Shown here one piece after another: positions 2,964-59,166 of a stretch of 64,000 nucleotides of DNA (positions within the stretch are counted from its first letter, which is position 1; each line of letters begins with the position of its first letter). The stretch lies in contig NZ_JBMNUS010000013.1 of assembly GCF_050946405.1 (NCBI RefSeq), forward strand, positions 71,443 to 135,442, written 5' to 3'. The DNA is from Pseudochelatococcus sp. GTDB lineage: Bacteria; Pseudomonadota; Alphaproteobacteria; Rhizobiales; Beijerinckiaceae. Both the position numbers and the translations under genes were made by a program. The notes under the pieces were generated by a model, which had not been told where the DNA came from, did not search any database, and saw only the letters and a list, made by a program, of their open reading frames with translations.

Positions 2964-3096
2964 CGCGCTTCCGGGGAGGCGCCGCGCCGCCCTCCCGGAA
3001 CGACAATCGACGAAAGAAGACGAAACTCCGGGCGGGCGGGCGTTCGCCGGCGGCACGCGCGCATGCGCCCTCGTTCTTGCGGAAAGGCTATCGTAA

Positions 3097-3822: not shown

Positions 3823-3845
3823 AGGCCCGAAGCAGGGTGACGATC

Positions 3846-19646: not shown

Positions 19647-20207
19647 TTGCATTATAGGGGTGCCATGGTTTCCTTGGCATGGCTCCTCCTGACCTACAAG
19701 GTCCCCCCCGATCCCGCCGCGCGGCGGGTCGCGCTCTGGCGCAAGCTGAAGGGCATGGGCGCGGTCTATCTGCAAAACGGCGTCTGCCTGCTGCCGAAGA
19801 CCGACGATCACGCCCGCCGCCTGAAGATGATCGGGAACGACGTCGCCGAAATGGGCGGCGAGGCGGTCATTCTCGAAACCGTGGCGCTGGATCGCGGGCA
19901 GGAGGAAAAGGTCGTCGCGCGATTCAGGGCCGACCGCGACGAGCAATACCGGGAGTTCCTCGGGCGCTGCGCCGATTTCGAGGCGGAAATCGCCAAGGAA
20001 ATCGCCATCGGGAAATTCACCTACGCCGAGCTGGAGGAAGAGGACACCGACCTGAAGAAGCTTCAGGGGTGGCTGGAGAAGATCAGGAAGCTCGACTTCT
20101 ACGGCGCGCTGCTGGCGGAGGAAGCCGCCTCTCGCCTGCGAGCCTGCGAGGCGGTGCTCGAAAGCTATGCGCAGCGCGTCTTCGACGCCCATGACGAGAA
20201 CCGGTAG
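19647..20207 (+). CDS. ChrB N-terminal-domain protein (chromate-resistance regulator-like)
   Basis: WLLLTYKVPPDPAARRVALWRKLKGMGAVYLQNGVCLLPK matches my recollection of the ChrB_N family. An alternative start is the Met at 19665. Confidence 0.65.
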   Translation: MHYRGAMVSLAWLLLTYKVPPDPAARRVALWRKLKGMGAVYLQNGVCLLPKTDDHARRLKMIGNDVAEMGGEAVILETVALDRGQEEKVVARFRADRDEQYREFLGRCADFEAEIAKEIAIGKFTYAELEEEDTDLKKLQGWLEKIRKLDFYGALLAEEAASRLRACEAVLESYAQRVFDAHDENR

Positions 20208-20208
20208 T

Positions 20209-21557: not shown

Positions 21558-21663
21558 ATTTCACGCATTTTCACGGATATTCAAGAGGTGCCTCATCAAT
21601 GGGCAGAGACTGCCTAATGGGTAGTCACATCGGCAAAAATTGCATGATAACGACAAAAATTGC
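21558..21663 (+). promoter_or_regulatory. Low-GC upstream region of the megasynthase gene with two pairs of direct repeats (candidate operator/promoter)
   Basis: ATTTCACG occurs at 21558 and 21568 (10-bp phasing). CAAAAATTGC occurs at 21634 and 21654 (20-bp phasing). This is the only AT-rich patch between the MFS gene and the FAAL domain. Confidence 0.3.
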
Positions 21664-21711
21664 GTCGCGGGGAGAGGCGGGCGCTTGCGTCGTCATCTCC
21701 CATATCGTTAC

Positions 21712-41200: not shown

Positions 41201-44200
41201 CGCCTTCGAGGATGGCGACCTGCGGCTGGAGGGCGTGCGCGTCATGCCCTTCGGCGACCGGAACGCCTGGAACTTCAGCCGTTTCGATCTCGTCTTCCAT
41301 TTTCAGGACGAGGCGGACGAGCTGGTGCTCGATCTCAACTACAACACCGACCTGTTCGACGATGCGCGCATCCTGCGCATGGGCGCGCATTTTGCGGAGC
41401 TGGCGCGCGCCGCAGCCGGCGACGAGTCGCAGGCTGTCGGGGAACTTAACCTGCTGCCGGCGGACGAAAGCCGGGAACTGGCCGCTTTCACGCACGGGCC
41501 GGTCGTGGCGCGCGATGCGGCGGCGACCATCGTCTCGACCTTCGTGGCGGCGGCGCGCCGTCACGCCGGGCGCCCCGCCGTCATCGATGCCGGAGGGCGC
41601 GTGCTCTCCTATGGCGCGCTCGACGGGGCGACGGACCGGCTGGCGCACGATCTCATCGCGGCGCATGGCGTCGCCCCCGGCGAGCGCGTGGCGGTGTTCG
41701 CGAGGCGCACGCCGGAATCGGTCGCCGCCATGCTCGCGGTGATGAAGGCCGGCGGCGTCTATGTGCCGATCGATCCCGACTATCCGGCCGCGCGGATACG
41801 GTTCATGCTGCGCCAGGCCGGCTGCCGGCTGGCGCTCGCCGACAGCGGGGCGGCCCCGGTCGCGGATGTGCAGGTCGTCGCCGTCGCGCCCCGGCTCGCG
41901 GCCGGCGACGCGGCGCAGCCCGTCGACCGCAGCGGCGCGGGCGAGGCGGCCTATGTGATCTTCACCTCCGGGTCGTCGGGCGAGCCGAAGGGGGTGGCGG
42001 TCGCCCACGGCGGTTTCGTCAACATGTCGTCGGGGCAGATCGCCCTTTTCGGACTCACGCCCGAGGACCGGGTGTTGCAGTTCGCCTCGCCGTCCTTCGA
42101 CGCCTCGCTCGCCAACATGTTCATGGCGCTGTTCAGCGGCGCGGCGGTGGTGCTGCCGTCTGCCGGCGACATCAAGAACACGGCCGATTTCCTGGCGCTG
42201 CTGGCGCGGAGCGGCACCACGGCGCTCACCCTGCCGCCGACCTATCTGCGCGCGCTGCGGCGGGCGGAACTGGCCGGGGTGAGGGTGCTCATCACGGCGG
42301 GCGAGGAAGCGCCGGCCGCCGACCTGCTCCATTACGCGCAGCGGCTCGCCGCCTTCAACGCCTACGGCCCGACGGAGTTTTCGGTCTGCGCCACGGTGCA
42401 TGAGGTCAGCGAGCGAGACCGCGACCGCCTGCGCCTGCCCATCGGCCGGCCGTTGCCGAATACGAGCGTGCATGTTCTCGATGCCGCGCTCAAGCCCGTC
42501 CCGGTCGGGATCGCGGGGGAAATCTGGCTCGGCGGCAGCGGGCTCGCGCTCGGCTACGAGGGCGATGCGGCGCAGACCGCCGCGCGCTTCGTCACGCATC
42601 CGCACACGGGCGAGCGCCTCTACCGCACCGGCGATCGCGGCGCGTGGCGCGAGGACGGCGCGGTCGATTTCCTCGGCCGCGCCGACGATCAGGTGAAGGT
42701 GGCGGGCCACCGCATCGAGCCGGGCGAGATCGAGGCGGCGATGCGCGCGGTGCCGGGCGTGCGCGACGCCCATGTCGCCACAGTGGCGCGGGCCGACGGC
42801 TCCGCCGCGCTCGCCGCCTGGTACTGCGCGGACGAGCGCGTGGAGCTGTGGCCTTCGGTGGCGGAGTTCTACGTCTACGACGACATCGCCTATGGCAGCA
42901 TGGCCGCCGACGAGGGGCGCAACCGGCGCTACCGCGAGGCTTTCGCGCGCCACCTGCCCGGCAGGACGGTGGTGGATATCGGCACCGGGCCGGTGGCTAT
43001 CCTCGCGCGCCTCGCCATCGAGGCCGGCGCGCGCAAGGTCTACGCCATCGACAGGCTGGAGGCGACGGCGCGCAAGGCGCGGGAGACCGTGGCGGCGCTC
43101 GGCCTCGACGACCGCATCACGGTGATCCACGGCGACGCCCTGACCCTGGAGCTGCCCGAGACGGTGGATTTCTGCATCTCCGAGATCGTCGGCGCCATCG
43201 GCGGGGCGGAGGGCGCGGCGCGCATCATCAACGGCGCGCGCCGCTACCTGAAGGACCCGGCGGCCATGCTGCCGCAGTTCAGCGACACGCGCATCGCGGC
43301 GCTGGCGCTGCCTCACGACCGGCTCGCGCCGGGCTTTTCGGACATCGCGGCGCATTACGTCGACAAGATCTTCGCGGAGGTCGGCCAGCCGTTCGACCTG
43401 CGCCTGTGCCTCAAGAACCTGCCGCGCGAGGCCATCGTCTCCACCGACGCGCCGTTCGAATATCTGGACTACACGCGCGAGGTGCCGGTCGAGGCGACGC
43501 ACACGGTCGAACTCGTCGTCACGCGGGACAGCGAGATCACCGGCTTCCTCGTCTGGCTGCGGCTCGGCGTCGATGCGGATGCGGTGGTGGATATTCTCGA
43601 CAACCCCGGAAGCTGGCTGCCGGTGTGGCTGCCGGCCTTCGCCGTGCCGGTCGCGGTGGCGGCGGGCGACCGCATCGCCATCACCATCGCGCGGCGGCTT
43701 TGCGGCAACGGTTTCAACGTCGACTTCTTCCTCGACGGCACGGTGACGCGGGCGGCCGGCGAGGCGGTGCCGTTCGCCTGCCGCAGCGCGCATTTCGGCG
43801 ACGGCTTCCGCCGCACGCCCTTCCATGCGGGGCTGTTCGCGGGGGAAGGGGTGCCGCGCTTCGAGGCGCCGACGCCGGCCGTGGTGCGCCGTCACCTGCT
43901 GGGCGCGGTGCCGGCGCATGCCGTTCCGTCCTTCCTCGTGCCGCTCGACAGGCTGCCGGTGACGATCAACGGCAAGATCGATCGCGCCGCCCTGCCGGCC
44001 CCCGGCGATGTCGCGGAAGGAGCGCGCCGGGGAGAGGCGCTTGCGCCGCAGACGCCGCTGGAGCGGCAGGTGCTGGATGTGTGGCGCGAGATCATGAGCC
44101 GGCCGGACATGACGGCGGGCGATGATTTTTTCAGCATGGGCGGCGATTCCATCCGCGCCATCCAGATCGTCTCGCGCCTGCGCCAGCTCGGCTGGAAAGC

Positions 44201-45683
44201 CGAAATCCGCGACGTGTTCCAGAATCCGACCGTCGCGCAGTTTGCGGGCGTTCTCGCGCCGGTACGCGCGCGGGCCGATCAGGGCGCGGTTGTCGGCCCC
44301 GCGCCGCTGACGCCGGTGCAGCGCTGGTTTCTCGAAACGAGCGTGCGGCCGGACCATTTCAACCAGGCGGTGGTGTTGCATGCGGAGGCGATCGACGCGG
44401 CCGCGGCCCAGGCGGCGCTCGAAGCCGTCTGGCGTCATCACGACGCCCTGCGCGCGGTCTTCACCCATGATGGCGGCGGCTGGTCGCAGTCCCTGCTCCC
44501 GCCCGGCGAGCCGCCCCGCGTGGTGGAGATCGCAGCCGATGATCCGGCCGCCTTCGCGGAGGCGGCGCGCGCCGTACAGGCGGGTTTCCGCATCGACCGG
44601 GGGCCGCTGCTCGTGGCGGCGCTGCTGGCGCGCGGCGCGGCGACGACGGAGGATGCAGGGGGAAGCCGGCTGCTGCTCTGCGCGCACCATCTCGTGATGG
44701 ATATCGTGTCGTGGGGCATCCTGATCGAGGACTTCACGGCGGCCTACCTGGCTCATCAGGACGGCACGACGCCGCGCCTGCCGGACAAGACGGATTCCTG
44801 CCGCGACCATGCGCGGGCGCTGGAATCGATCGCGGCGCGGGTGGACTGGACCGGCCGGCTCGGCTACTGGCGCGCGCTGGAGCGGGATGCGCCGCTGCTG
44901 CCGGGCTTCGCCGGCCCGTTCCGCGTCGCGGATGCGTTCACCCTCCAGGGTGTGCTGGCCGCCGGGGTGACGGCGGCGCTGCTCGGCCCGGCCAATCACG
45001 CCTATACGACGGGAACGGAAGACCTGCTGCTCGCCGCTCTTGCTCTCGCGATCGAGCGGCATTTCAGCCGCGCCGGGGCGCTGGTGACGGTCGAGAGCCA
45101 CGGCCGCGAATACCCGCTGGCCGATCTTCTCGGCGATGGCGAGGCGCCCGACGTCACCCGCACGGTCGGCTGGTTCACGGCCTTCCATCCGTTCCGGCTG
45201 GAGGCGGCGTCCGGGATCGGCGAGACCGTGCGCGGCGTCAAGGAGGCGCTGCGCCGCGTGCCGGATCGCGGCTGGAGCCATCTCCTGATGCGGACGCTGC
45301 CGGCGGAATGGGTGGTGCCGGACCTGCGGCCGCAGATCGGCTTCAACTATCTCGGTCAGATGCGTTCGGCCCCCGCCGGCGTCGGCCCCTTCGCCGTCGA
45401 CTGGGACGCGCCCGGCGGCGCGGTGGCGGCGGATGCGCACCGTCCGCATGCGATCGACGTGCTGGCCATGGCGGTGGACGGGGAGCTGCGCGTCAGCCTC
45501 GACGTCGACGAGGCGGCGATCGGACGGGAGGCGGGCGAGGTGCTGCTGCGCCGCTTCCTCGCGGCGATCGAGGAAGTCGTCGCCCATTGCCTCGCGCGGG
45601 AAACCGCCGAGCTTACCCCGTCCGACATGACCTACGACAAGCTGTCGCTGGACGATCTCGATCGTCTGCTGCTGGCCGAATGA
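38244..45683 (+). CDS. NRPS: A-PCP-C-A(embedded methyltransferase)-PCP-E
   Basis: The start is the ATG at 38244 ([12 protein letters not shown]...), within ORF 37587..45683. Motifs are listed in the domain features below. Confidence 0.95.
   Translation: [2479 protein letters not shown]
38300..39830 (+). other. Domain: adenylation A3 (by-eye code DVRHLALLAK, not assignable)
   Basis: [67 protein letters not shown]. Confidence 0.85.
39870..40080 (+). other. Domain: PCP3
   Basis: [11 protein letters not shown]; Ser codon at 39966..39968. Confidence 0.9.
40130..41440 (+). other. Domain: condensation C5
   Basis: [16 protein letters not shown] at the start; HHIVADVWS at 40539. Confidence 0.85.
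41520..42830 (+). other. Domain: adenylation A4, N-terminal part through motif A8 (by-eye code DAATIAAVCK, Phe/Tyr-like)
   Basis: [69 protein letters not shown]. Confidence 0.85.
42831..43880 (+). other. Embedded class I SAM-methyltransferase domain with protein-arginine-methyltransferase (PRMT)-like motifs, inserted between A8 and A9 of A4
   Basis: [81 protein letters not shown]. The A domain resumes with [21 protein letters not shown]. Confidence 0.7.
43881..44000 (+). other. Domain: adenylation A4, C-terminal part (A9-A10)
   Basis: [30 protein letters not shown]. Confidence 0.8.
44050..44260 (+). other. Domain: PCP4
   Basis: [11 protein letters not shown]; Ser codon at 44148..44150. The GGDSI form is the one usually seen upstream of E domains. 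Confidence 0.9.
44290..45683 (+). other. Domain: epimerization (E), C-terminal, with a COM-donor-like tail
   Basis: E motifs [18 protein letters not shown] (44685), [38 protein letters not shown]. The tail reads [22 protein letters not shown]. Confidence 0.85.
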
Positions 45684-45723: not shown

Positions 45724-47364
45724 ATGAAGCTTCTGGATCTGCTGCGCAAGGAAGCGGGCATCGGCGGGCCGCGCTTCATCGGTTTCGCTGCCCTGTCGGG
45801 CCTGTCCAACGCCGCCATTCTGGCCATCATCAACCTTGCCGCCAGCAATGCGAGCGACAAGGGGGAGAATTTTCACAATCTGATCCTGTTCGGTCTCGCC
45901 ATCGCCGTCTTCGTCGTCACGCAGCGCGCGCTGATGATCGAGGTCTGCGAGAAGGTGGAGTTGCTGATCGACCGCATCCGGGTGCGGCTGATCGAGCGGG
46001 CGCGGCGGGCGGAGTTTCTGGAGCTGGAGGAGATCGGCCGTTCGGAGATCTACGCCTGCCTCACCCGCGAGACGCAGATCCTGTCGCAGGCGGCGCCCAA
46101 TGTCGTGATCGGGTTGCAGTCGGCTATCCTCGTGGTGTTCACGCTGCTTTACATGGCCTTTCTGTCGCAGACGGCCTTCTGGCTGTCGGTCGGCTTCACC
46201 GTCGTCGGCGCGATGATCCATCTGTCGCGCTCGGCGGAGGTCAAGCGCGAGCTGCGCGCCGCCTTCGAATGCGAGAACGCGCTGATCGAAAGCCTCGGCG
46301 ACATGCTCGACGGCTTCAAGGAAGTGAAGATGAGCACCGGCCGCTCCGCCGACATCGCGCACAGGATCGCGGAGATTTCGGCGCGGGTCGGCCGGATGCG
46401 AATCAGGACGCAGACGCTCTACGCGACGGATTTCGTGATGTCGCAGGTCACGTTCTTCATCATGACCGGCATCATGGTGTTCGTCGTGCCGACCATCAGC
46501 GACGCCTATATCGAGGTGGTGGTGATGACGACCACCGCGAGCCTGTTCCTGATCGGCCCGGTGTCGAACGTGGTCGGCAGCCTGCCCATCTTCTCCAACG
46601 CCAACGCCGCGGCGGAGAACGTGATGGCGCTGGAGGAGCGGCTCGGGCGCGTCAACGGCGAGGTGCGGGACGCCGGCGGCGGCTTCCCCGACTTCCGGCG
46701 GATCGCGCTCCAGGGAGCGAGTTTTTCGCACCGGCCTTCCGGCGGCGACAAGGGGTTCGCGGTCGGTCCGGTCGATTTCACGGTGGAGCGGGGAAAGACG
46801 ATCTTCCTCACCGGCGGCAACGGCTCCGGCAAGACCACGTTCATCCGCCTGCTGGTGGGGCTCTATCCGCCGGGCGGCGGCGTCATCCGCGTGGACGGCG
46901 CGCCCGTCGGCCCGGCCAATGCCGCCGATTACCGCAACCTGTTCTCCGTGATCTTCTCGGACAACCATCTGTTCACGGAGCTTTACGGCATCCCCTCCAT
47001 TGATGCCGATCAGGCGGCGGAATTGTTCGCGCTGCTCGAAATGCAGCACAAATCGCAGATCGCCGGCCGTCGCTTCACCACGGTGCGGCTTTCCGGCGGA
47101 CAGCGCAAGCGGCTCGCCCTCATCGCCGCCCTGCTGGAGAAACGGCCCGTCTGCGTGTTCGACGAATGGGCGGCGGATCAGGACCCGTATTTCCGCGAGA
47201 AATTCTACAGGATTATACTTCCGCGCCTGAAGGAAAAAGGCGTCACCGTCATCGCGATTACTCACGATGACGCCTATTTTGACATGGCCGATGTCCACAT
47301 CCACATGGACAATGGGCATCTGACCGTCGTGAAGGACGAATCCGTTCTTGAGGGAACCACCTGA
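45724..47364 (+). CDS. Cyclic-peptide export ABC transporter (SyrD/PvdE-type fused permease-ATPase)
   Basis: N-terminal MKLLDLLRKEAG..FIGFAALSGLSNAAILAIINLAA, Walker A GGNGSGKTT, LSGGQRKRLAL, and Walker B VCVFDEWAADQD. Confidence 0.9.
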   Translation: MKLLDLLRKEAGIGGPRFIGFAALSGLSNAAILAIINLAASNASDKGENFHNLILFGLAIAVFVVTQRALMIEVCEKVELLIDRIRVRLIERARRAEFLELEEIGRSEIYACLTRETQILSQAAPNVVIGLQSAILVVFTLLYMAFLSQTAFWLSVGFTVVGAMIHLSRSAEVKRELRAAFECENALIESLGDMLDGFKEVKMSTGRSADIAHRIAEISARVGRMRIRTQTLYATDFVMSQVTFFIMTGIMVFVVPTISDAYIEVVVMTTTASLFLIGPVSNVVGSLPIFSNANAAAENVMALEERLGRVNGEVRDAGGGFPDFRRIALQGASFSHRPSGGDKGFAVGPVDFTVERGKTIFLTGGNGSGKTTFIRLLVGLYPPGGGVIRVDGAPVGPANAADYRNLFSVIFSDNHLFTELYGIPSIDADQAAELFALLEMQHKSQIAGRRFTTVRLSGGQRKRLALIAALLEKRPVCVFDEWAADQDPYFREKFYRIILPRLKEKGVTVIAITHDDAYFDMADVHIHMDNGHLTVVKDESVLEGTT

Positions 47365-47401
47365 ACAGGCGGTTGCGTTTTGACGAGAGGCATGCAGGGG
47401 A

Positions 47402-50400
47402 ATGACGATCATGCTCGGGACATCGCAATGGCGTGAGGGCGGCGGAAGGTGGCTGCGCCGGTTCGCGCTCGGATCGGCCGCCGCGGCGGCGGTGACGGGA
47501 ACGGCGCTGGCCGCCGATGTTTCGCAGGTGGGGCCGGTCTTGCAGGGGTTTCTCGATGCGACGGCCTCGCAAGGCACGCTTCAGGGGGTCGCGATCGGCG
47601 TCGACCTGCCGGGTGGCGAAGGGAGCTGGTTCGGCGGGGGCGGCTATCGCGACATCGCCCGCACCGAGCCGCTCGGCGCCGACCTGCAATTCCGCATCGG
47701 CAGCGCGTCGAAGACCTTCACCGGCACGGCGGTGTTGCAGCAGGTGGATCAGGGGCTGATCGGGCTCGGCGATTCGATCGACAAATGGGTGCCCGATCTC
47801 AACGTGCCCGGCGGCGACCGGATCACCGTCGAGAACCTGCTCAGCATGACGAGCGGCATTCCCGACTATCTGGGCGCGGAGTCGATCCATAGCCCCGGTA
47901 ATACGATATTGCAGGAATGGGCCAACTTCCACGGCCCGGCCGGTTCCCACGGCAACGCCGACTACACGCCCGAGCAGCTCGTGGGCGCGGTGGTCGACAG
48001 TCTCGGGGCCAGCTTCGGGCCGGTCGGCGAGATGTTCTATTCCAACACCAATTTCGCCCTGCTCGGCATCATCGCGCAACGCGCGTCGTGCCTCGGAGCC
48101 TCCGGTTGCCGGACGATCGACGAAATGGTCAACGGCATCGCCGCTTCCATGGGGCTTGCCGACACGGTCTTTCCCGCTTCGTCCGCCTTCACGGCGCCTT
48201 ATGCGGAAACGGCGCAGGTCGTCATCGGCGACGCTTCCTATTACGGCGTTCCGCCCGGCAGCAGCTTCGACATGACCTTCCTCGATCCGCGCGTGCCGTG
48301 GGCGGCGGGCGCGGTGTTGTCGACGCCGGCGGATGAACTGAAATGGGTGCGCCAGCTCGCGACCAACAGCGACGGGCTGCTGTCGGCGCAGACGCAGGCC
48401 GAGCGTGTCGGCGTGGCGGAGCCCGGCGAGGTGAGCGGCGTGCCGGTGTTCTACGGCCTCGCCCTCTATGCCATGCCCGGCGTGGGGAGCGGCACCTATC
48501 TGACCGGCCACAGCGGGCTGATCGGCGGCGACACGGCGTCGCTGTTCTACAATCCGGCGCTGGACGTGGCCTATGCCGTCAATTTTCTCGGCTATCAGGC
48601 CAATGCATTGCCATGGTTTCCGCTCTACGGCGCCTCCGACGCCCTGGGCCGTTACGTTTATGCGGGAAGGGAAGGGGGCAATTACAGCTCCGTCATGATC
48701 CTGTGGGCGCTCGACCGCAACGTCACGCTGGCGCTCACCGCGCAGGGCTCGTGCAGCTACGGGGCCGGCCCGCAGGGCGCGGGCGGCGACAGGACCTGTG
48801 CGGGCGACAGCGTGCGCACGACGCCGATCGCCGTCACTGATGGCACGCTGACCATCGCCCCGTCCCACCTGACCATGGGCAATTACTACATCGATCCCGT
48901 CACCGGCGCCGTTTCGCTGGCGCAGGTGGCGCGGCCGAGCCTTGCGATGTTCGGCAGCCATTCCGCCGCGGTGGCGTTGCAGGGCGGGGCCTCGCTCGTG
49001 CTGCCGCAAGGGGCGACGGCCGAGCTGTGGGGCACGAACTCCGCCACCGTCAGCATGACCGGCGCGGACAATGCCGCGCACATCGGCGGCACGCTTCTCA
49101 CCTACGGCGTGGATTCGGTGGCGGTGCGGATTATGGGCGACCGCAACCGGGTGAACGTGCTGCCGACCGGCGCTGTGGTCGGCGCCAGCGCGCCCGCCAT
49201 CGCCATGAGCGGCCGCGACAACGCCGCCGTCATCGGCGGCAGCGTGACGACCTACGGCCACGGCATCGAGCGGATCGCCATCGCGGGCGAAGGCGGCGGC
49301 AATCGCGTGGAGGTGGAGCCCACCGGCTATGTCGGCGGCGACATCGCGCTCGCCGGCGACGGCAACCGGGTGAGGGTCGACGGCATCGTCTCGGGCCATG
49401 TGCCGATGGCGGGAGGCGACGCGGTGCTGAGCGGCGAGGGCGTGATCACCGGCGTCGTGGGCGGCGGCGGCACGGTGGCGCCGGGCAATGGCATCGGCAC
49501 GCTTACCGTCGGCGGCTATGCCGGGCGCGATACCCGGCTGATGATCGAGACCGGGCCGGGCGGCGCGAGCGACCTGCTCGCGGTGGCTGGCCCCGCTTCC
49601 CTGACCGGCGGCAGCCTGCATGTCACGCCGCCGCCGGCGGCGGCGAGCGGCATCTACAATGTCCTCTCCGCCGGCGCGGTGGAAGGGGCGTTCGCCGCCG
49701 CCACCACCGGCGGCCGCGTGGGCCTTGGCGTGCAATACACGCCGACGGCGGTCAATGTCGCGGCGGTCAACCCCTTCCTGTTCGATGCGGCGGTGCGCAC
49801 CGGCGCGGCCGATACCCTGCGCAATCTCGACCTGTTCGAGGAGCGGGCGGCGGCGTTCGCCGCTTCAGCTACTTCCGCCGCGCCGGCCGGTGCGGCACGT
49901 GGGCCTGCCGCCGGCGCGCAGGCCGAAAACCTGAAGGAATGGTTCTCGCGGCGCGGCGCGTCGGCGGCGGGTTCCCGCGCGGCGGGGGCGGCGGTCTGGG
50001 CTTCGGCCTACGGCGCCTTCGACCGCCATGCCGCGGATGGGCCGGTGCCGACCATCGCGTCGGAGGGCGGCGGCGTCGCGGTGGGCGCCGATGCCGAACC
50101 CCTGCCCGGCCTGCTTGTGGGCGCGATGGGCGCCTACAGCCGCACCCAGGCGACGACGCCGGCGAATCCGGGAATGAAGTTCTCCTCCGACGCCTACAAG
50201 GCCGGCGTCTACGGCGCTTACGAGGCCGGGCGCGTGCTGTTCAGCGCCTCGCTGCTCGCCGGCCGGGGCGACGACACCACCACGCGCGCGGTGGAATCGG
50301 GAGCGCTCGCCGGTGTGGCGCAGGGCAGCTTCGACGATTTCCGCCTCGCCGCCCGCGTGGGGGCGCGCGCGACCTTCGATGTGGGCGCGGGCGTGCGCCT

Positions 50401-50836
50401 GACGCCGCGCGCCGCCGTCACGCTGCTGCGGATCGAGCAGGACGCCCATCGCGAGATCGGCGGCATTCCGGGCTACGGCTTCGGCATCGGCATCGGGGCA
50501 AGCACGTATGAACAGGTGCGGTCCGAGGCATCCCTTGCGGTTGCGAAGACTTTCGACGTTTCCCTGGGCGGCTGGAGCGGCCGGCTCACGGGCGAGCTTC
50601 GCGCCGGCCTCGCGCGCGACATCGTGCTGAAGAGCGCGAACGGATGGGTCGACGTGCCCGGTTTCAGCCCCGTCGTCACCGGCGGCTTCAAGCGGAACGC
50701 CTGGGTGATGCCGGTCGGCGGCCGGCTGGAGCTGGCGGCGAGCGACTCGCTCTCCGTCTTCGCCGCCTACGATGGCGCGTTCTCCAGCCTCGGTGGCGTC
50801 AATACGGTGCGCGGCGGCTTACACTGGCGTTTCTGA
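47402..50836 (+). CDS. Autotransporter with a beta-lactamase-fold (S12 / class C / family VIII esterase-like) serine hydrolase passenger
   Basis: Signal peptide ...AAAVTGTALAADV. SxxK = SASK (Ser at 47702), YSN (48038), HSG (48509). Passenger repeats such as GNGIGTLTVGGYAG lie near 49490. The C-terminal beta-barrel (about 49990-50836) ends in GGLHWRF. Confidence 0.85.
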   Translation: MTIMLGTSQWREGGGRWLRRFALGSAAAAAVTGTALAADVSQVGPVLQGFLDATASQGTLQGVAIGVDLPGGEGSWFGGGGYRDIARTEPLGADLQFRIGSASKTFTGTAVLQQVDQGLIGLGDSIDKWVPDLNVPGGDRITVENLLSMTSGIPDYLGAESIHSPGNTILQEWANFHGPAGSHGNADYTPEQLVGAVVDSLGASFGPVGEMFYSNTNFALLGIIAQRASCLGASGCRTIDEMVNGIAASMGLADTVFPASSAFTAPYAETAQVVIGDASYYGVPPGSSFDMTFLDPRVPWAAGAVLSTPADELKWVRQLATNSDGLLSAQTQAERVGVAEPGEVSGVPVFYGLALYAMPGVGSGTYLTGHSGLIGGDTASLFYNPALDVAYAVNFLGYQANALPWFPLYGASDALGRYVYAGREGGNYSSVMILWALDRNVTLALTAQGSCSYGAGPQGAGGDRTCAGDSVRTTPIAVTDGTLTIAPSHLTMGNYYIDPVTGAVSLAQVARPSLAMFGSHSAAVALQGGASLVLPQGATAELWGTNSATVSMTGADNAAHIGGTLLTYGVDSVAVRIMGDRNRVNVLPTGAVVGASAPAIAMSGRDNAAVIGGSVTTYGHGIERIAIAGEGGGNRVEVEPTGYVGGDIALAGDGNRVRVDGIVSGHVPMAGGDAVLSGEGVITGVVGGGGTVAPGNGIGTLTVGGYAGRDTRLMIETGPGGASDLLAVAGPASLTGGSLHVTPPPAAASGIYNVLSAGAVEGAFAAATTGGRVGLGVQYTPTAVNVAAVNPFLFDAAVRTGAADTLRNLDLFEERAAAFAASATSAAPAGAARGPAAGAQAENLKEWFSRRGASAAGSRAAGAAVWASAYGAFDRHAADGPVPTIASEGGGVAVGADAEPLPGLLVGAMGAYSRTQATTPANPGMKFSSDAYKAGVYGAYEAGRVLFSASLLAGRGDDTTTRAVESGALAGVAQGSFDDFRLAARVGARATFDVGAGVRLTPRAAVTLLRIEQDAHREIGGIPGYGFGIGIGASTYEQVRSEASLAVAKTFDVSLGGWSGRLTGELRAGLARDIVLKSANGWVDVPGFSPVVTGGFKRNAWVMPVGGRLELAASDSLSVFAAYDGAFSSLGGVNTVRGGLHWRF

Positions 50837-51586
50837 CCGGGTGTTTCCGAGCCGCATATGCGCGAGGACTTGCGCGTGAAACTCGTCCGCGTTCTCGCGC
50901 AGGAAGAAGTGCCCGCCCGCGATCGTCACCAGCTCGAAACCATCGCCCGCGACCGCCGCCCAGCCGGCGATCTCGCGCGGCGAGACGAGCGGATCGTCCG
51001 CGCCGGCGAAGGCGACGACCGGACAGGTCAGGCGCTCGACCGGAAAGGGCAGGGACGTTTCCGCCAGGGCGAAATCCGCCCTGAGCGTGCGCTCGAACAA
51101 TTCTCGGAACTCCGCGTTGCGCACGATTTCCTCCGGCGTGCCGTTGTAGGAGGACAGCCGGCGCCAGAATTCTTCGGAAGGCAGGTCATGCAGCGGCGGC
51201 ATGCGGGGCGGGGCGCCGGGAGGGCGATGCGCGGCGACCATGACGCAGGCGGGCGCGGGAAGACCGAGACGATCCGCCGCCCGCGCGAGACAATAGGCGA
51301 CGCGCGCGCCAAGCGAGTAGCCGAGCAGGACGTAGGGACGATCGAGCAGCGGCGTGAGCGCCTCGATGAGGCGCGCCAGCAGGAGGGGCATCGAGGCAAT
51401 GGGGGTCTCCGAAAAGCGGCTTTCGCGGCCGGGGAACTGCGCGGGCAGGACTTCGAGCCGCTCATGAGCGCGCGCATGCGCCCGCAATCCGGCGAAGGCG
51501 GATACGCCGCCACCCGCGAAGGGCAGACAGATCAGCCGCATGGCAGGGCGACCCGTACCCCCGGCGGCGGGAAACCAACGGCGCAT
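50819..51586 (-). CDS. Type II thioesterase (GrsT/TEII family alpha/beta hydrolase)
   Basis: RLICLPFAGGG, GYSLGARVAYCLA (GxSxG), and a C-terminal GGHFFL. The start is uncertain (ORF extends to 51703; the Met at 51586 gives a typical length of about 255 aa). Confidence 0.85.
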   Translation of the reverse strand: MRRWFPAAGGTGRPAMRLICLPFAGGGVSAFAGLRAHARAHERLEVLPAQFPGRESRFSETPIASMPLLLARLIEALTPLLDRPYVLLGYSLGARVAYCLARAADRLGLPAPACVMVAAHRPPGAPPRMPPLHDLPSEEFWRRLSSYNGTPEEIVRNAEFRELFERTLRADFALAETSLPFPVERLTCPVVAFAGADDPLVSPREIAGWAAVAGDGFELVTIAGGHFFLRENADEFHAQVLAHMRLGNTRSETPV

Positions 51587-51882
51587 GGCCGCAGCAGAGA
51601 CGGACGGTTCCGCTCCTTCTTCGCCAGCAGCGGTAATGTCTCTCTCCATTGCCATCATGTCTTCGGGGTATCGGATCGTGCGCATTATTATAGCAGGCGA
51701 CAAAGGTATAGCTCTCGACTCCGATGGTCAACTATGATAGGTGTAGGATATTACTTTCATGAAATAGAAAGTGTTCTGGACAGTGTGCGCCGGTTGCGTC
51801 GGGGCGGGGCCTGAAAGCGGTGGGCGGTGGACTGTCACGGTTGCGAATTCCATCTCGTTTCATACTCCCGGAGGAGAGCATC

Positions 51883-52512
51883 ATGGTTGCCGAGGCGCAG
51901 AACAGTGTCGGGGAAGAAGTCGCGGCAGCCGAGCCTGCCAGCCGCCAGAAGGCCGAGCAGATCATTCGCAAATATACGCTGTGGGCGACGGGCGCGGGCC
52001 TCATTCCGGTTCCCGTGCTGGACGCCGTCGGCGTGGCGGGCGTGCAATATGCGCTGGTCAACGATCTGGCGTCGCTCTACGGCGTGCCGTTCTCGAAGGA
52101 GCGCGTGCGCGCGCTCGTCGCCGGCCTGGTCGGCGGCGGCGTTCCGGCGCTGCTGACCACCGGCGGGCTCGCCAGCGCGGCGAAGGCCGTTCCGTTCGTG
52201 GGCTCGCTGCTCGGCGCGGCGGTGTTTCCCGCGCTTTCGGCCGCCGCGACCGTGGCGCTCGGCCGGGTGTTCACGCAGCACTTCGAGGCCGGCGGCACGC
52301 TGCTTGACTTCGACGCCGAGAAGACGCGCGCTTTCTTCGCGGAAGAGTTCGAGAACGCCCGCAAGGAAGTGGGCGAGACGCTGGCAAGCGCGGGTGTCGG
52401 CGTGGCCGGAAAAGCCAAGGCGGCAGATGCCCCGGCTGCTCCCGTTCCTGCCGCCGCTGCTCCTGCTTCGGCGGCGAAGAAGGAAACGGCTGCCGCGCCC
52501 GCCGCCGTGTGA
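51883..52512 (+). CDS. DUF697-family membrane-associated protein
   Basis: IIRKYTLWATGAGLIPVPVLDAVGVAGVQYALVNDLASLYGVPFSKE. The ATG at 51883 is preceded by ggaggagag. The C-terminal tail is Ala/Pro-rich. Confidence 0.65.
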   Translation: MVAEAQNSVGEEVAAAEPASRQKAEQIIRKYTLWATGAGLIPVPVLDAVGVAGVQYALVNDLASLYGVPFSKERVRALVAGLVGGGVPALLTTGGLASAAKAVPFVGSLLGAAVFPALSAAATVALGRVFTQHFEAGGTLLDFDAEKTRAFFAEEFENARKEVGETLASAGVGVAGKAKAADAPAAPVPAAAAPASAAKKETAAAPAAV

Positions 52513-52625: not shown

Positions 52626-52817
52626 ATGGCTGTCGTCATTTACTTTATGCTGTGCGTGCTTGTCGGGATACTCGGCCTCGGTTATTGGGGCGGCTTTCTT
52701 CTGTACTTCATTCTCGCGCTCGCCATGACGCCGCTTGTCGCCTTGCTGGTGCTCATCATCGTGGGATCGAGCGAGGGGCGGCGCGGCTTCGCGCGGTTCA
52801 GGAAGCCGGAGCCCTGA
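52626..52817 (+). CDS. Hypothetical small membrane protein (63 aa, two predicted TM helices)
   Basis: ORF MAVVIYFMLCVLVGILGLGYWGGFLLYFILALAMTPLVALLVLIIVGSSEGRRG.. is strongly hydrophobic. No family was recognised. Confidence 0.35.
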   Translation: MAVVIYFMLCVLVGILGLGYWGGFLLYFILALAMTPLVALLVLIIVGSSEGRRGFARFRKPEP

Positions 52818-52914
52818 CGATATCCCTGCCCGCATGGCCGGGCGCGGCCGGGTTGCGCCGCGCATTCGATGAACGTTCATGGCCGGCCTTGCCGCCGGTG
52901 CGTCACGGAAGACG

Positions 52915-54318
52915 ATGACACAACAAGATCTTTTCACCCCGGATGCCGGTGTCGCGCCTGCGCGGCACTGGCGCCGGTTTCGTCTGCCGCGCCGCCGCGA
53001 TCTTATGCTGTGCGTGCTTGTCGTGCTGCTTTGCGTGACGTTTCTCGCGCCCTACATGGTCGTCAATATTCCGGCCGGGTCCGCCGGCGTGATATGGCGT
53101 CGCTTCGGCGGAGGCACCGATACGGAGATGGTGCTGCACGAGGGCATCGCGCTGATCTGGCCGTGGAACCGCGTGCAGCTCTATGACCTGCGTCTCCAGA
53201 GCGAAAGCATCGATATCGTCGCGATTTCCCAGGACGGGCTGAACATCACCATCGGCCTGACCTTCCGCTGGTTCGTCAACCCCAAGTTCGTCGGCTGGTT
53301 GCACAAGATCGCGGGCCCCCAATACATGCAAAGAATTCTCCTGCCGGAACTGAACTCATCGACAAGACAGGAGTTTTCGAAGTTCAGGATGGTGGATTAT
53401 TATGGCCCGAACCGGGAAGAAATGCTTTCCCGCGTTTACAGCACCGTCGTCGATCGCGGATTTCCCAACTTCATTTTCGCGCCGAAGGATCTCGATACGG
53501 TCAATGCCGGTCTCAAGGTCAACGACGGCCTGATCATGCTGACCGATGTCCTGATTCGCGAAGTGGTGATGCCGCCCCGCGTCGTTGCCGCGGTGCAGGC
53601 GAAAATCGAGCAGCAGCAACTCGTTCAGGAAATGCAGCACCGGGTGGAGCGCGAGCGCTTCGAGAACCAGCGCAAGGAAATCGAGGCGGAAGGGATTCGC
53701 AAGTTTCAGCAGATCGTGCAGACGGGGATTTCCGAAGCCTATCTCAAGTGGCGCGGCATCGAGGCGACGGTCCTGCTGGCGAACTCGCCCAATGCCAAGA
53801 CGATCGTTCTCGGCGGCAACGGCGGCCTGCCTCTCATTCTGAACACCGGCGACGCGGGGACGCCGGCGGCGGTTGCGGCCGCGCCGTCCGCGCCTCCCGC
53901 CCCCGAGGGCAAGAACGGCGCGGCCAGATATCTCGGTTCCGTCGACATCTCGCGGCCGGACATGCGCAATCGGGAATCGAAGGGATTGGGCCTCGGCGCG
54001 ACGCTGCATCCGGCGCAGGGCGCGTGGTCCCGCGATGTCGCCGCCATCGGGCCTACCGCGACCTCCGGCATCGCCGGTTCCGCGAACGCGGCCGGCCCTG
54101 ACGCGAGCCGGGTTCCCGGCGTTTCTCCCGCCGGCCCCGGCAATGTGGAGGCCGGCGCGCTGTCGATGCCCGCGCCGCGTCCGCCGGGCGTGCTGCCGAT
54201 CATGTCGCCGTTCATCGGCGTCGGCGGCACGGTTTCGTTCTGGCAGAAGCTTTCCAGCCTCTTCGGTATCGCGGACCCGCCCGGCGGGCAGGCCGAGACC
54301 GGGCCGCCCACGCCCTGA
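52915..54318 (+). CDS. SPFH/band-7 (prohibitin/flotillin-like) membrane protein with a C-terminal Pro/Ala/Gly-rich tail of about 160 aa
   Basis: The N-terminal TM segment LMLCVLVVLLCVTFLAPYMVV is followed by an SPFH core: GSAGVIWRRFGGGTDTEMVLHEGIALIWPWNRVQLYDLRLQSESIDIVAISQDGLNITIGLTFRW, then a coiled region QAKIEQQQLVQEMQHRVERERFENQRKEIEAEGIRKFQ. Confidence 0.75.
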   Translation: MTQQDLFTPDAGVAPARHWRRFRLPRRRDLMLCVLVVLLCVTFLAPYMVVNIPAGSAGVIWRRFGGGTDTEMVLHEGIALIWPWNRVQLYDLRLQSESIDIVAISQDGLNITIGLTFRWFVNPKFVGWLHKIAGPQYMQRILLPELNSSTRQEFSKFRMVDYYGPNREEMLSRVYSTVVDRGFPNFIFAPKDLDTVNAGLKVNDGLIMLTDVLIREVVMPPRVVAAVQAKIEQQQLVQEMQHRVERERFENQRKEIEAEGIRKFQQIVQTGISEAYLKWRGIEATVLLANSPNAKTIVLGGNGGLPLILNTGDAGTPAAVAAAPSAPPAPEGKNGAARYLGSVDISRPDMRNRESKGLGLGATLHPAQGAWSRDVAAIGPTATSGIAGSANAAGPDASRVPGVSPAGPGNVEAGALSMPAPRPPGVLPIMSPFIGVGGTVSFWQKLSSLFGIADPPGGQAETGPPTP

Positions 54319-54331
54319 TCCGGCCGGGCAC

Positions 54332-57300
54332 ATGTCCGCGGCGGGCCGGCAGCGGGCAGGACGTCACCAGCAACTTCCAAACCGTAATGGCGAAACCGTG
54401 CTCTCCCGCGACAACATCAAGGACATCTATCCGCTGACGCCTTTTCAGGAAGGGGTCGTCTTTCACGATCTCATGGAGCGCGAGGCGGCGCACGAGGGCC
54501 AGCGCGCCTACTTTCAGCAGATGAGCTTCACCGTGCGCGGGCCGCTGGATATCGCGGCCTTCCGGCGCGCCTGGCAATTCCTGGTGGACCGGCATGACGT
54601 GCTGCGCACCGTCTTCCGGCCGACAGGCGCGGAGCGGCCGTTGCAAATCGTGCTGAAGGCGCGTGAACTCGTGCCGGATGTCGTCGACTGCCGCGCTCTC
54701 GGCCCGGATGCCGCCGGCGCGACCTGCGAGCGCTACGAGGCGGAGCAGCGGCAGCGCCCGTTCGATCTGCGGCGCGACCTGCTGGTGCGGCTCGGCCTGC
54801 TGCTGATCGCCCCGGAGGAGACCCGCGTCGTGTTCGGCTTCCATCATGTGCTGATGGACGGCTGGTGCATCGGCATCTTGCAGGACGACCTGACGCGCGC
54901 CTATCAGGCTTTTACGCGCGGCGATGCGCCGCGTCTGCCCGCCGCCGTTCAGTTCGGCGGTTTCGTCAAGGCGAGCGAGCGGCGGCGCACGGCGCGGGCG
55001 CTGGATTTCTGGCGCGATTATCTCGCGGATTACGAGACCGCCGTGGCGCTCCCCGGCCGCCGCCCCGTCGCCCTCGACGGGCCGCGGGACAGCCTCACGC
55101 ACGAGGCGGCGCTGGGCGAGGCGCTGACGGCGCAACTCGATGCGCGGGCGCGCGCGCTCGGGGTGACGCCGGGCACGCTGGCGCAGGCGCTCTGGGGCGT
55201 GCTGCTGGCGAAGATGGAGAATCGGCGGGATGTCGTCTTCGGCACCATGGCCTCGACGCGCCTGCCCGATCTTCCGGGCGGCGAGGCCGTGCTGGGGCCG
55301 TGCATCGGCATGCTGCCGCTGCGCATCCGCTACGCGCCATCCGAAACCTTCGCGGAACTCGTGGCGCAGGTCCATGCGCAACGGCCCGGCTGGCTCGGGC
55401 ACGTGCATTGCGCGCTGGCCGACATCCAGCAGGCGAGCGCGCCGCGCGGCGCGTTGATCGGACATTATTTCGTCTATGAGAACTACCCGCTCGACGCGCG
55501 TTTCCGGGGCGAGGCGCAGGTGCTCGCGCCCGGCGTGACGATCCATGACGTGCGGATGTTCCAGACCGGCAATTACGATTTCGGGGCGCTCATGCTGCCG
55601 GGCGAAAGCGCGCGCCTCGTGTTGACCTTCAACAGCCGGGCGGTCGATCCGGCGGCCGTGGCGCGCATCGGGCGCTGGTTCGTGCGGCTGGCGCGGCAGG
55701 CCGCCGGGGAGCCGGACTGCGCCATCGATGCCATGACCCTGCTCGATGACGAAGAGGCGGCGCGAATCGAGGCGTGGGGCCGGGGGGCGGAGCCCGGCGT
55801 GCTTGCGCCCGACATCGCGGCGCTGCGGCGCGATGTCGTGGCCCGTAGGGGCGAGGCCCCGGCTGTGCGGGCCGGCGGGCGCACGCTCTCGCACGCGGAA
55901 CTGGAAGCGCGGGCGCGCGGGCTCGCGGCCTGGTTTCGCCGCGCGCACGGGATCGGGCCGGGCGATCCGGTCGCGCTGCATCTGCCTGCCGGAGAGGGGC
56001 TGGTGACGGCGATGCTGGCCTGCCTGCTGCTCGGCGCGCCGTTCGTGCCGCTCGACCCCGGCAATCCGGCGCTGCGCACGGCCCATATCCTGAAGGACAG
56101 CGGGGCGCGGCTCGTGCTGGCGCAGGGCGCGCTGCCGGAAGAGGCGGCGGCCGGCGTGCCGGTGGCGCAATCGCCGGCCGATCCCGGCGCGCTCGACGGG
56201 GAAGCGCTGCCGGCCGTCGACGCCGACGCGACGGCCTACATCATCTATACTTCCGGCACGACGGGCGTGCCGAAGGGGGTGCGCGTCGGCCAGTCCGCGC
56301 TCATCAATTATGTCGGCTGGTTCGGCACGCTGTCCGGCGCCGGGCCTGACATGCGCACGGCGCTCGTGACCTCGGCGGCCTTCGATCTCGGCTATACCGG
56401 CCTGTTCGGCGCGCTGCTCGGCGGCGGCTGCGTGTCGCTTCCCGACGAGGACGAGCGCCGCGATCCGGCCCATGTGCTCGCCCTGCTGGCCGACCACGGC
56501 ATCATGGTGCTCAAGACGACGCCCTCCTATCTGTCGATGCTCCTCGCGACGCCGGGCGGGGAGGCGCGTCTTGCCGGGGCGGGCGCGCTGCGCCTGCTGC
56601 TGCTCGGCGGCGAGCCGCAGAATTTCGCCGAGCTGCGGCGTCTGCGGCAACGGCTTCCGGGCCTGCGCATCTACAATCATTACGGGCCGACCGAGGCCAC
56701 CATCGGCTGCGCCGCCGGCCCGCTCGACGATCTGGCGGATCGCGGCGAGGGGCCGCAACGTCTCGGCCGGCCGATCGCGGGCGTGCGCCTTTTCGTGTGT
56801 GACGCCGCGCTGCGGCCCGTGCCGCCCGGCGTGCCGGGCGAACTGCTCGTGGCCGGGCGCGGCCTCGCGCAGGGATATGTGAACGCCTCGCCCGCCGACG
56901 CCGCCCGCTTCGCCGTCCTGCCATGGTGCGGCGGGCTGCGCGTCTACCGCACCGGCGACCGCGTGCGCTGGGCCGATGACGGCACGCTGGAGTTTCTCGG
57001 GCGCGTCGACGATCAGGTGAAGGTGCGCGGCTATCGCGTCTCGCTGAAGGAGGTCGAGGCGGCGCTGACGGCGCTTGAGTGCGTGCGTGACGCGGCGGTG
57101 GTGACGGATGCGCGCGGCGGCGCGACCGAGCTTGTCGCCTATGTCGTCCCGGAAGGGGAAAGGCCGGAAGGGGAAACGACGCCGGCCGCCATCCGCGCCG
57201 CTCTGGCGCGGCGTCTGCCGCCGCCGATGATACCGGCGCGCTTCATCGCCGTGTCGCGCTTCCCGCTGACCGCCAACGGCAAGACCGACCGCAAGGCGCT

Positions 57301-58387: not shown

Positions 58388-59166
58388 GCGGTGAGGCGCG
58401 GCCGCTCGCCGGCGCGCAGGAGCATGGTGAGCGCGAAGGCGTGGCCCGAAGCGAGCAGACCGCTCTGGACGTGCCAGACGCCCGCGCGGCGCAGGTCTTC
58501 GTCGAGATGGGCGAAGCCGAGACGGGTGAAGCCGAGACTGGCGAAGGTTGGCTGATCGAGCGAGAAACCGGCGCAGGTCAGCGGGCGGGAAAGGCCCTGG
58601 CCAAGGCCCTTCACCACGCTTTCCTTCAGCGTCCACAGCCTGAAGAAGCGCTCCGCCATCGGTGTCGGGCAGTCGCCGTGAGCGGAATCCGGCTGGATGG
58701 GAGAGCGTTCCAGCGCGGCAAGGCCGGCCAGTTCCGCCGCCGTGCAGAAGCTTTGCGCCAGTTCGATCGTCGCCGTCGCCGGCGTCACGCGCTCGACATC
58801 GACGCCGGTCTCGCGGCCCTCGCACAACGCGACCGCCACGCAGCCCGCCGTGTGCGACAGGCTGAAGCGCACGTCAGGCATCCCCGGCGCGCGCACGATG
58901 CACGGCTTGCCGAGGGGCGAGGCGGTAAAGCGCCATGCCGCCGGCCCCGTTCCGGCGATATGGCGGGACAGCGCCCCCCGCAGCAGGCCGTGCGCGGCGA
59001 CGAATGTCTCGCGATCGCGCTCGAAACGGAAACGGCCCGCCCGCGCGGTCTCCTGCGCGTCGAGCCACGCTGCCGCCCGCCCGCCGGCGATCCCGGCCGG
59101 AGCCGCGATGTAAACCGATACCGGAATGTCCCGTATGGACGCCGGACTGTCGTGCATTATATCCAT
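58261..59166 (-). CDS. 4'-phosphopantetheinyl transferase (Sfp/EntD type)
   Basis: RFRFERDRETFVAAHGLLR, FSLSHTAGCVAVA, GVDVE, FRLWTLKESVVKGLG. Its 3' end overlaps the NRPS TE-coding region. Confidence 0.85.
   Translation of the reverse strand: MDIMHDSPASIRDIPVSVYIAAPAGIAGGRAAAWLDAQETARAGRFRFERDRETFVAAHGLLRGALSRHIAGTGPAAWRFTASPLGKPCIVRAPGMPDVRFSLSHTAGCVAVALCEGRETGVDVERVTPATATIELAQSFCTAAELAGLAALERSPIQPDSAHGDCPTPMAERFFRLWTLKESVVKGLGQGLSRPLTCAGFSLDQPTFASLGFTRLGFAHLDEDLRRAGVWHVQSGLLASGHAFALTMLLRAGERPRLTAYAVSDPGALAAGVAPAPLPLAVSSCSSHDSTVFRCGGWNIE

Follow-up and report, generated by a model that had tools for sequence, protein, structure and literature searches.

A predicted D-stereospecific S12 peptidase carried by an autotransporter and encoded in a lipopeptide gene cluster of Pseudochelatococcus sp.

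Several enzymes of the S12 fold are encoded with nonribosomal peptide synthetases (NRPSs), and they differ in where they work. TriF and BogQ of Paenibacillus and Brevibacillus, whose prototype is the alkaline D-peptidase (ADP) of Bacillus cereus, are Firmicute proteins without a barrel or lipid anchor and without a beta-helix stalk; ClbP has an inner-membrane anchor and recognises the N-acyl-D-Asn supplied by a C-A(Asn)-T-E starter module; SurE and Ulm16 are cytoplasmic, replace a missing thioesterase (TE) in cis and prefer a D-residue at the acyl donor. To our knowledge, the S12 peptidases that cut by D-residues of NRPS products have so far been inner-membrane proteins or secreted Gram-positive proteins only. 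Previous studies showed that TriF cuts after a D-aromatic residue (D-Trp) and BogQ after D-cationic residues of non-ribosomal peptides, and both are thought to protect the producer (PMC8127968), and that Lip3 is an S12 DL-carboxypeptidase taking one C-terminal residue off lipopeptides (PMC12903863). Here we describe an autotransporter gene with an S12-type passenger (47402..50836, + strand; open reading frame (ORF) of 1144 aa with Pfam PF00144 and PF03797) in a stretch of 64,000 nucleotides from Pseudochelatococcus sp. (contig NZ_JBMNUS010000013.1, positions 71,443 to 135,442 of the forward strand; hereafter the window). We propose that the passenger would hydrolyse the exported lipopeptide of its own gene cluster next to a D-residue, a reading to which we give a probability of roughly 0.55.

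Judged from sequence, the window protein would work like TriF and BogQ, less likely like ClbP, and appears to be built like the enzyme-bearing autotransporters. It resembles TriF and BogQ as an exported S12 peptidase in an NRPS cluster with a D-residue in the product (a likeness drawn from their descriptions, the protein compared being the prototype ADP), and the sole predicted D-residue of the window product is aromatic, as is the residue after which TriF cuts. Unlike them, it is a Gram-negative protein with a type Va barrel (a lipid in some homologues) and a beta-helix stalk of ~330 residues. The ClbP type (colibactin, xenocoumacin, zwittermicin) also has the S12 Ser/Lys/Tyr, is membrane-anchored outside the cytoplasm, belongs to a cluster of NRPS or NRPS-polyketide synthase (PKS) genes with an exporter and cuts by a D-residue, as is predicted for the window enzyme, but the window anchor is an outer-membrane barrel, no epimerase follows module 1 of the window assembly line and the similarity is weak. 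The GDSL esterase EstA, the aminopeptidase AaaA, the subtilisins NalP/SphB1 and the SPATE proteases share the signal peptide, catalytic passenger, alpha-helical linker and 12-strand barrel, and the SPATE and subtilisin types likewise carry their catalytic head on a beta-helix stalk; the window passenger differs from all of these in its S12 fold, and its gene lies in a secondary-metabolite cluster, not in a virulence locus. Lip3 and Lip7, which are secreted by Paenibacillus and hydrolyse D-L amide bonds in lipopeptides, are likewise S12 enzymes, from which the window enzyme is set apart by HSG as its third motif. SurE and Ulm16 are NRPS-cluster-encoded and have the S12 fold with SxxK/YxN/HxG, whereas the window enzyme has a signal peptide and a barrel, and its cluster has both a TE in the terminal NRPS and a type II thioesterase.

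No description of an S12 or beta-lactamase-type autotransporter passenger, or of NRPS clusters that count an autotransporter among their constant members, was found in the literature, of which our coverage was incomplete. What appears to be new is a D-residue S12 peptidase that type V secretion or a lipid anchor places on a Gram-negative envelope and that is tied to one chemotype. If confirmed, this would add a class of autotransporter passengers, make the cell surface a new compartment for the tailoring of, or immunity to, non-ribosomal peptides, and offer a genome-mining handle for an uncharacterised lipopeptide family. Further, the passenger could serve biocatalysis as a naturally surface-displayed D-L peptidase and, if it is a resistance enzyme, would be a transferable means of lipopeptide inactivation.

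Architecture and S12 relatives of the passenger

The original prediction had read the ORF at 47402-50836 (+) as a 1144-aa autotransporter with an S12 passenger, beside a SyrD/PvdE-type exporter and within an NRPS cluster, and this architecture proved correct. The ORF exists as described, the motif coordinates are exact (SASK at 47702, YSN at 48038, HSG at 48509), the Gly-rich repeat GNGIGTLTVGGYAG and the terminal HWRF occur in the translation, and the ORF that ends 37 nt before 47402 on the same strand matches the exporter family TIGR01194. In the Pfam searches that had been recommended, both families were matched: residues 58-393 by PF00144 Beta-lactamase (E 5.6e-40), and residues 865-1124 by PF03797, as a complete Autotransporter beta-domain (E 8.3e-29).

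An AlphaFold2 model was built on 22 homologues (mean predicted local distance difference test (pLDDT) 83.9, predicted template modelling score (pTM) 0.72) and read together with their alignment. At the N-terminus a Sec-type signal peptide (47402..47515, +, aa 1-38) was recognised by eye from an Arg-rich n-region, a hydrophobic core and ALA followed by AD, between which cleavage probably occurs; the signal peptide claimed before thus fits on inspection, residues 1-37 are disordered in the model (pLDDT < 50), and the homologues all have a hydrophobic N-terminus or a lipobox. The S12 (beta-lactamase-fold) catalytic domain (47519..48739, +, aa 40-446) is a globular alpha/beta domain with S101-x-x-K104, Y213-S-N215 and H370-S-G372, in which S101, K104, Y213, N215, H370 and G372 are invariant across the 22 homologues, and the three motifs are retained in 37/37 family members and outgroups checked. 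An invariant cysteine pair, C451/C466 (48752..48799, +), is seen in the alignment where the catalytic domain gives way to the stalk; it likely forms a disulphide, fitting an exported protein. The stalk including the GNGIGTLTVGGYAG coil (48791..49768, +, aa 464-789) is modelled as regular short strands, mostly with pLDDT > 90, so that the Gly-rich beta-helix-type passenger expected from the repeats appears as a beta-helix in the model. It is followed by an alpha-helical linker (aa 792-820) and a low-confidence Ala-rich segment (aa 822-861; together 49775..49990, +), and by a 12-strand type Va autotransporter beta-barrel (49991..50833, +, aa 864-1144, ending in HWRF) that matches EstA, AaaA, NalP, AIDA-I, Hbp and EspP. 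The sequence and model features of a type Va autotransporter are present (signal peptide by inspection, beta-helix stalk with alpha-helical linker, aromatic-ending barrel), and we infer that the passenger would be displayed on the cell surface.

Barrel-less homologues of ~700 aa (L005, L013-L015; P0011-P0013, P0016-P0020, P0035), encoded in some of the related clusters, keep the head and the stalk and have a lipobox at the start, and the Sphaerotilus-type barrel-less forms have a Cys-Gly-Gly-Gly tether, which recalls neisserial surface lipoproteins and is taken as a lead only. Judging by these sequences, the family anchors one and the same passenger to the envelope either with an autotransporter barrel or with a lipid. 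The ~1320-aa proteins of Xanthobacter and Pseudochelatococcus B33 (L002, L009-L012) have an insertion of ~180 residues with extra stalk coils.

The closest relatives of the catalytic domain were sought with a family profile (hidden Markov model) against all PDB sequences. Full-domain matches were obtained with ADP (4y7p, 4.8e-53), the D-stereospecific amidohydrolase 3wwx (5e-45), the D-stereospecific hydrolase dHy1 (9s7k, 5e-41), the R61 DD-peptidase (2e-38) and the D-amino-acid amidase DaaA (1e-31); EstB, AmpC, SurE and ClbP were matched at 1e-15 to 5e-12 and in the N-terminal third only. ADP was also the best PDB sequence match when the single sequence was used (3.9e-22, full domain). In Foldseek, R61, DaaA, dHy1, 3wwx and ADP took the top ranks with template modelling (TM) scores of ~0.8 (R61 0.81), and ClbP was found at rank 44 (TM 0.56). 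The third motif HSG is of the HxG form, like that of R61 and ADP. Since the profile, single-sequence and Foldseek comparisons agree, the enzyme is, to judge from these similarities, a member of the D-stereospecific peptidase/amidase branch of S12 (ADP, R61, DaaA, dHy1). ClbP and SurE, which the original prediction had named as examples, turned out to be only distant relatives, the D-stereospecific peptidases being closer in both Foldseek and profile searches.

Other assignments were tried and rejected. A class C beta-lactamase would have KTG, not HSG, and the NCBIfam class C models scored far under their cut-offs (best 34.5 bits against cut-offs of 415-887, in the N-terminal third only; another class C model gave 31.8 bits against 415, and AmpH was among the weak matches). 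The ClbP type was set aside for its weak sequence and structure similarity, the lack of C-terminal transmembrane helices and the wrong starter module, and SurE-type offloading for the signal peptide and autotransporter barrel of the window protein and the cis TE of the terminal NRPS.

Association with one lipopeptide cluster family

The protein family is rare, with 49 cluster representatives at E <= 1e-30 among 1.84 billion, and the head-plus-stalk protein occurs in 11 loci in 185,579 species genomes. A homologous FAAL-PKS-aminotransferase/NRPS cluster was found in all further loci with visible NRPS neighbours (18/18; 19 including the window), which come from Azospirillum sp. TSH100, A. agricola, Pseudochelatococcus sp. 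B33, two Methylobacterium and three Xanthobacter genomes, a Rhizobiales metagenome-assembled genome (MAG), a Bradyrhizobium MAG, three Sphaerotilus MAG contigs, GCA_977010415 and four metagenomic contigs. For several loci, which are metagenomic contigs, the context is visible on one side only, and the contig of P0032 is too short for context. The linkage spans the Alphaproteobacteria and the Betaproteobacteria (Sphaerotilus) with hydrolase identity down to 29% (P0036), and the cluster-linked members are scattered over the whole family in a simple neighbour-joining (NJ) tree. The gene order is variable: in Azospirillum the hybrid synthetase gene lies immediately upstream of the hydrolase and is oriented divergently, elsewhere the hydrolase comes after the terminal NRPS, a DUF697 gene adjoins the hydrolase in most related loci, and in Xanthobacter-type loci the upstream cluster genes are visible and DUF697, SPFH and terminal NRPS genes are not within 10 kb downstream. 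The linkage survives both divergence and rearrangement and therefore indicates a functional partnership; on the sequence evidence, the hydrolase is a constant, dedicated member of one lipopeptide cluster family.

In one Sphaerotilus MAG, two contigs (L014 and L015) each have a hydrolase beside a terminal NRPS, DUF697 and FAAL-PKS, which may represent two paralogous clusters or a strain mix in the bin.

The original prediction had held that relatives with the gene and without the NRPS genes would speak for a chance neighbour. The linkage stood in the 18 of 18 loci with NRPS neighbours and broke down in a small nested clade outside NRPS clusters, formed in the NJ tree by P0021, P0022 and P0030 (~33-36% identity for P0021 and P0030). 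The S12 autotransporters P0021 and P0030, whose contexts are readable (L086/L087, 10001-13114 in L086; L092), lie beside genes of Opp-type peptide importers: next to P0021 there are a complete importer operon, a metallo-beta-lactamase (MBL)-fold hydrolase and a D-amino-acid-dehydrogenase-like gene (E 1.6e-50, under the curated cut-off), and on the short contig of P0030 two permease genes only are visible. This context suggests surface digestion and uptake of D-amino-acid-containing peptides, and it supports D-peptide hydrolysis as the chemistry of the family.

The hydrolase was further compared with the adenylation codes and accessory genes of the clusters. In all readable hydrolase-bearing loci the last three A-domain codes were identical or 1-2 positions apart (DVRHLALLAK; DAATIAAVCK, once DAITLAAVCK; DLTK[L/F]GHIGK). 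The DUF697 subfamily has at least 484 metagenomic relatives, and the best 80 of their loci (L094-L173) repeatedly contain an ABC exporter, SPFH, a small protein, a type II TE and NRPS or FAAL-PKS genes; the hydrolase was found in 0/80 of these best loci, and their A-domain codes differ. By these comparisons, ABC, DUF697 and SPFH form an accessory set common to many proteobacterial NRPS clusters, to which the S12 autotransporter is added for a single product type. The hydrolase thus tracks the chemotype and not the export genes, as would be expected of an enzyme whose substrate is the product or some feature of it. The ABC transporter, DUF697, 63-aa protein and SPFH protein together look like a widespread, undescribed accessory cassette, perhaps for export or envelope protection, and full-text literature searches found no paper on DUF697 or SPFH in NRPS clusters.

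Predicted product and proposed function

Three synthetases make up the assembly line of the window. The hybrid synthetase (21640..36354, +, 4904 aa; assigned by Pfam, phmmer domain mapping, motifs and specificity code) has the order FAAL-ACP-KS-AT-ACP-aminotransferase-C-(A remnant)-T-C-C-A-T-C, the second NRPS (38244..45683, +; Pfam, domain map) is A-T-C-A-T-E with a methyltransferase inserted in its second A domain, and the third, terminal NRPS (54332..58387, +; Pfam, specificity code) is C-A-T-TE (TE PF00975, E 5.2e-18). A start by FAAL, PKS and aminotransferase follows the beta-amino fatty acid logic known from the iturins. The same logic is used for the puwainaphycins, which are beta-amino fatty acid lipopeptides (PMC4219810). 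The epimerisation domain at the C-terminus of the second NRPS (44274..45680, +) matches TIGR01720 (95 bits, cut-off 74.2) and has E-type motifs in the alignment; no other C-like domain of the assembly line matches this model, and the C domain of the third NRPS aligns with the post-epimerase C of the reference model PRK05691. Specificity codes and residue assignments were read by hand. The codes are, in order, DFWSVGMVHK, which we take to be Thr-like, DVRHLALLAK, DAATIAAVCK, presumably Phe/Tyr-like in the N-methylated module, and DLTKLGHIGK, presumably Asp. The predicted product is a beta-amino-acyl pentapeptide ending in ...D-(N-Me-aromatic)-L-Asp, with a single D-L junction.

The first NRPS module (28432-33069; aa 2265-3810) has C and T and only ~100 residues of the A-domain C-terminal subdomain; because the A domain is reduced to this remnant, the module must, by its domain content, be loaded in trans. 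After its T, two tandem C-type domains with the variant motifs HHAIADVWS and then HHAMGDR follow with no T between them. A literature search for characterised alphaproteobacterial beta-amino-fatty-acid lipopeptide clusters of this type found none, only cyanobacterial and Bacillus analogues.

In the mechanism that we favour, the protein would be exported by Sec, its barrel would insert into the outer membrane and the passenger would be shown on the cell surface. The lipopeptide would be made in the cytoplasm and pumped out by the adjacent cyclic-peptide ABC transporter, and at the envelope the S12 domain would cut, via Ser101/Lys104/Tyr213, the amide bond formed by the carboxyl group of the single D-residue. 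With a linear product, the C-terminal Asp would be removed (DD/DL-carboxypeptidase geometry, as in R61 and Lip3); with a macrolactam, the ring would be opened (endopeptidase mode of ADP and TriF). The original prediction had proposed that the lipopeptide might be matured, linearised, detoxified or activated, and we infer that these options would narrow to hydrolysis by the single D-residue. As to its role, self-protection of the producer by a local shield on its own surface, in the manner suggested for TriF and BogQ, is a tentative suggestion, and maturation or activation after export is somewhat more doubtful still. The slight lean to self-protection is taken because a surface enzyme cannot intercept every exported molecule and because tethering to the surface keeps the activity with the producer; ClbP and PvdQ are periplasmic and so able to meet every exported molecule.

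Some points weigh against hydrolysis of the cluster's own product or against its use as a shield. A functional link follows from the conserved synteny, but the synteny does not identify the product as the substrate. The nearest structural relatives include amidases and DD-carboxypeptidases, so that the exact bond and the endo or exo mode are not fixed by them. The product is a prediction from A-domain codes that were read and assigned to residues by hand. In addition, if the barrel-less lipoproteins face the periplasm, they would favour maturation over a surface shield.

Among the alternatives, the enzyme could act on foreign substrates, degrading the D-peptides of competitors or scavenging D-peptides, with the gene kept in the cluster for co-regulation only. 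The nested clade lends itself to this, P0021 and P0030 lying outside NRPS clusters by Opp-type importer genes and P0021 with its D-amino-acid-dehydrogenase-like gene, and the S12 peptidases Lip3 and Lip7 attack lipopeptides of other organisms; however, 19 loci hold the gene in one cluster family despite reshuffled order, and it follows one chemotype and is missing from NRPS clusters that share the accessory genes, which leaves foreign substrates unlikely. An esterase of the family VIII kind, opening a Thr-O-lactone or other ester of a cyclic depsipeptide, is conceivable in so far as a Thr-like module (DFWSVGMVHK) and a TE could yield a lactone, yet D-peptidases and amidases were matched by the profile at 1e-53 to 1e-31 and esterases at 1e-15 to 1e-17, and R61 and ADP share the HxG form of the third motif, so we consider an esterase quite improbable. 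A prodrug activator of the ClbP type, which would remove an N-terminal acyl-D-amino-acid cap, is slightly less credible again: the S12 gene does come directly after the exporter gene in an NRPS cluster, an AsnB gene is present and the first NRPS module has no A domain of its own, but no epimerase follows the first T, where the two C-like domains miss TIGR01720, the starter is FAAL-PKS-aminotransferase and not C-A(Asn)-T-E, and the protein has no C-terminal transmembrane helices.

The last biosynthetic step might also take place outside the cell, with an acyl-enzyme formed at the penultimate D-residue, as by DD-transpeptidases and the PBP-type cyclases SurE and Ulm16, L-Asp expelled as D-Ala is in DD-transpeptidases, and transfer to an amine. 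The acceptor would be the lipopeptide's own beta-amino group (extracellular macrocyclisation to a macrolactam) or an envelope acceptor (covalent surface attachment). The penultimate D-residue mirrors the acyl-D-Ala-D-Ala donor geometry, and the aminotransferase would supply a beta-amino group free to act as nucleophile, by the logic of the puwainaphycins (PMC4219810). Against such a transfer, the terminal NRPS has its own TE, able to cyclise, and a surface enzyme exposed to water would hydrolyse by default. We know of no extracellular NRPS cyclase, and regard this step as very improbable. Least probable is a cell-wall or beta-lactam role independent of the lipopeptide, as peptidoglycan DD-carboxypeptidase/endopeptidase or beta-lactamase. 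The R61 DD-peptidase is among the best structural matches, and class C and AmpH models of NCBIfam are weakly matched, but the outer membrane separates an autotransporter passenger from the peptidoglycan of its own cell, the NCBIfam scores are far under the cut-offs (31.8 against 415 for class C) with HSG in place of KTG, and the strict cluster linkage would be left unexplained. Compared with these alternatives, hydrolysis of the cluster's own lipopeptide next to its D-residue remains the reading that we prefer.

Gene start, neighbouring genes and flanks

A public 1141-aa 'serine hydrolase' of a Pseudochelatococcus MAG (Alphaproteobacteria, Hyphomicrobiales) is 100% identical to the window protein. 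The Shine-Dalgarno-like AGGGGA (47396-47401) touches the ATG at 47402, and a second ATG at 47411 lies 9 nt further 3'; the true start is probably ATG 47411, giving 1141 aa, because the AGGGGA spacing fits and the public annotation also starts there. The autotransporter gene is the last of a co-directional block of NRPS-PKS, AsnB, NRPS, ABC and autotransporter genes. Pfam searches with the antisense and alternative-frame ORFs across the gene gave no match, and these long ORFs are the usual shadows of DNA with ~70% GC. A scan for promoters and terminators found nothing exceeding the shuffled background.

The cluster extends from ~20.1 kb to ~60 kb of the window and begins with an MFS transporter gene (20167-21429). 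Between the hybrid synthetase and the second NRPS lies a glutamine-dependent asparagine synthase gene of the AsnB type (36358..38247, +; Pfam; TIGR01536 434.7 bits, cut-off 267.1), whose stop is overlapped by the ATG of the second NRPS at 38244. The second NRPS is followed by the cyclic-peptide-export ABC transporter of the SyrD/PvdE type (45724..47364, +; PF00005/PF00664; TIGR01194 313.8 bits, cut-off 286.2). Downstream of the autotransporter gene, and convergent with it with an 18-nt overlap at the 3' end, is a type II thioesterase gene (50819..51703, -; GYSLG motif; PF00975, E 1.3e-30), which was absent from the genes listed in the original prediction and occurs at the same position and strand in both Methylobacterium loci. 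The + strand ORF at 50858-51814 has no Pfam match and was rejected as a shadow of this minus-strand gene. Then follow the DUF697 membrane protein (51820..52512, +; PF05128, E 2e-10; synteny), the small hydrophobic protein of 63 aa (52626..52817, +; tblastn 51-65% in L002, L003, L006 and L008) and the SPFH/Band 7 protein (52879..54318, +; PF01145, E 7.3e-17; synteny), after which the terminal NRPS begins. A 4'-phosphopantetheinyl transferase gene (58261..59166, -; PF01648, PF22624), found at the same position in L002, is the probable right edge of the cluster. As called, this ORF and the 3' end of the terminal NRPS overlap by ~127 nt (58261-58387), with no such overlap in L002, and one of the two ends may be over-extended.

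Additional envelope genes were observed in other loci, namely a BBP2_2 beta-barrel (L002, L003, L008), a ShlB/POTRA_2 Omp85-type protein with SBP_bac_3 (L093, L002) and a TauD-type hydroxylase (Azospirillum). Genes for a BBP2_2 outer-membrane protein, TauD hydroxylase, SBP_bac_3 or ShlB-type protein were not found in the window, and they are therefore not constant partners of the hydrolase.

The GC content of the cluster is 3-6 points above that of the flanks. For the hydrolase and NRPS of the window, Methylobacterium is the nearer relative (57% and 67%), ahead of the other Pseudochelatococcus genome (47-48% and 63%). This pattern is a hint that the cluster was transferred horizontally, or else of an error in binning. 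The 20 kb upstream contain an ABC importer (SBP_bac_8 type), a GMC oxidoreductase, two aldehyde dehydrogenases, an isocitrate/isopropylmalate dehydrogenase and an HTH-cupin regulator, which seem unrelated to the cluster. In the same region, two ORFs of DAO-family FAD oxidoreductases (3063-5147 and 17506-19602) have N-terminal extensions of ~280 aa without a match, and their starts are probably over-called.

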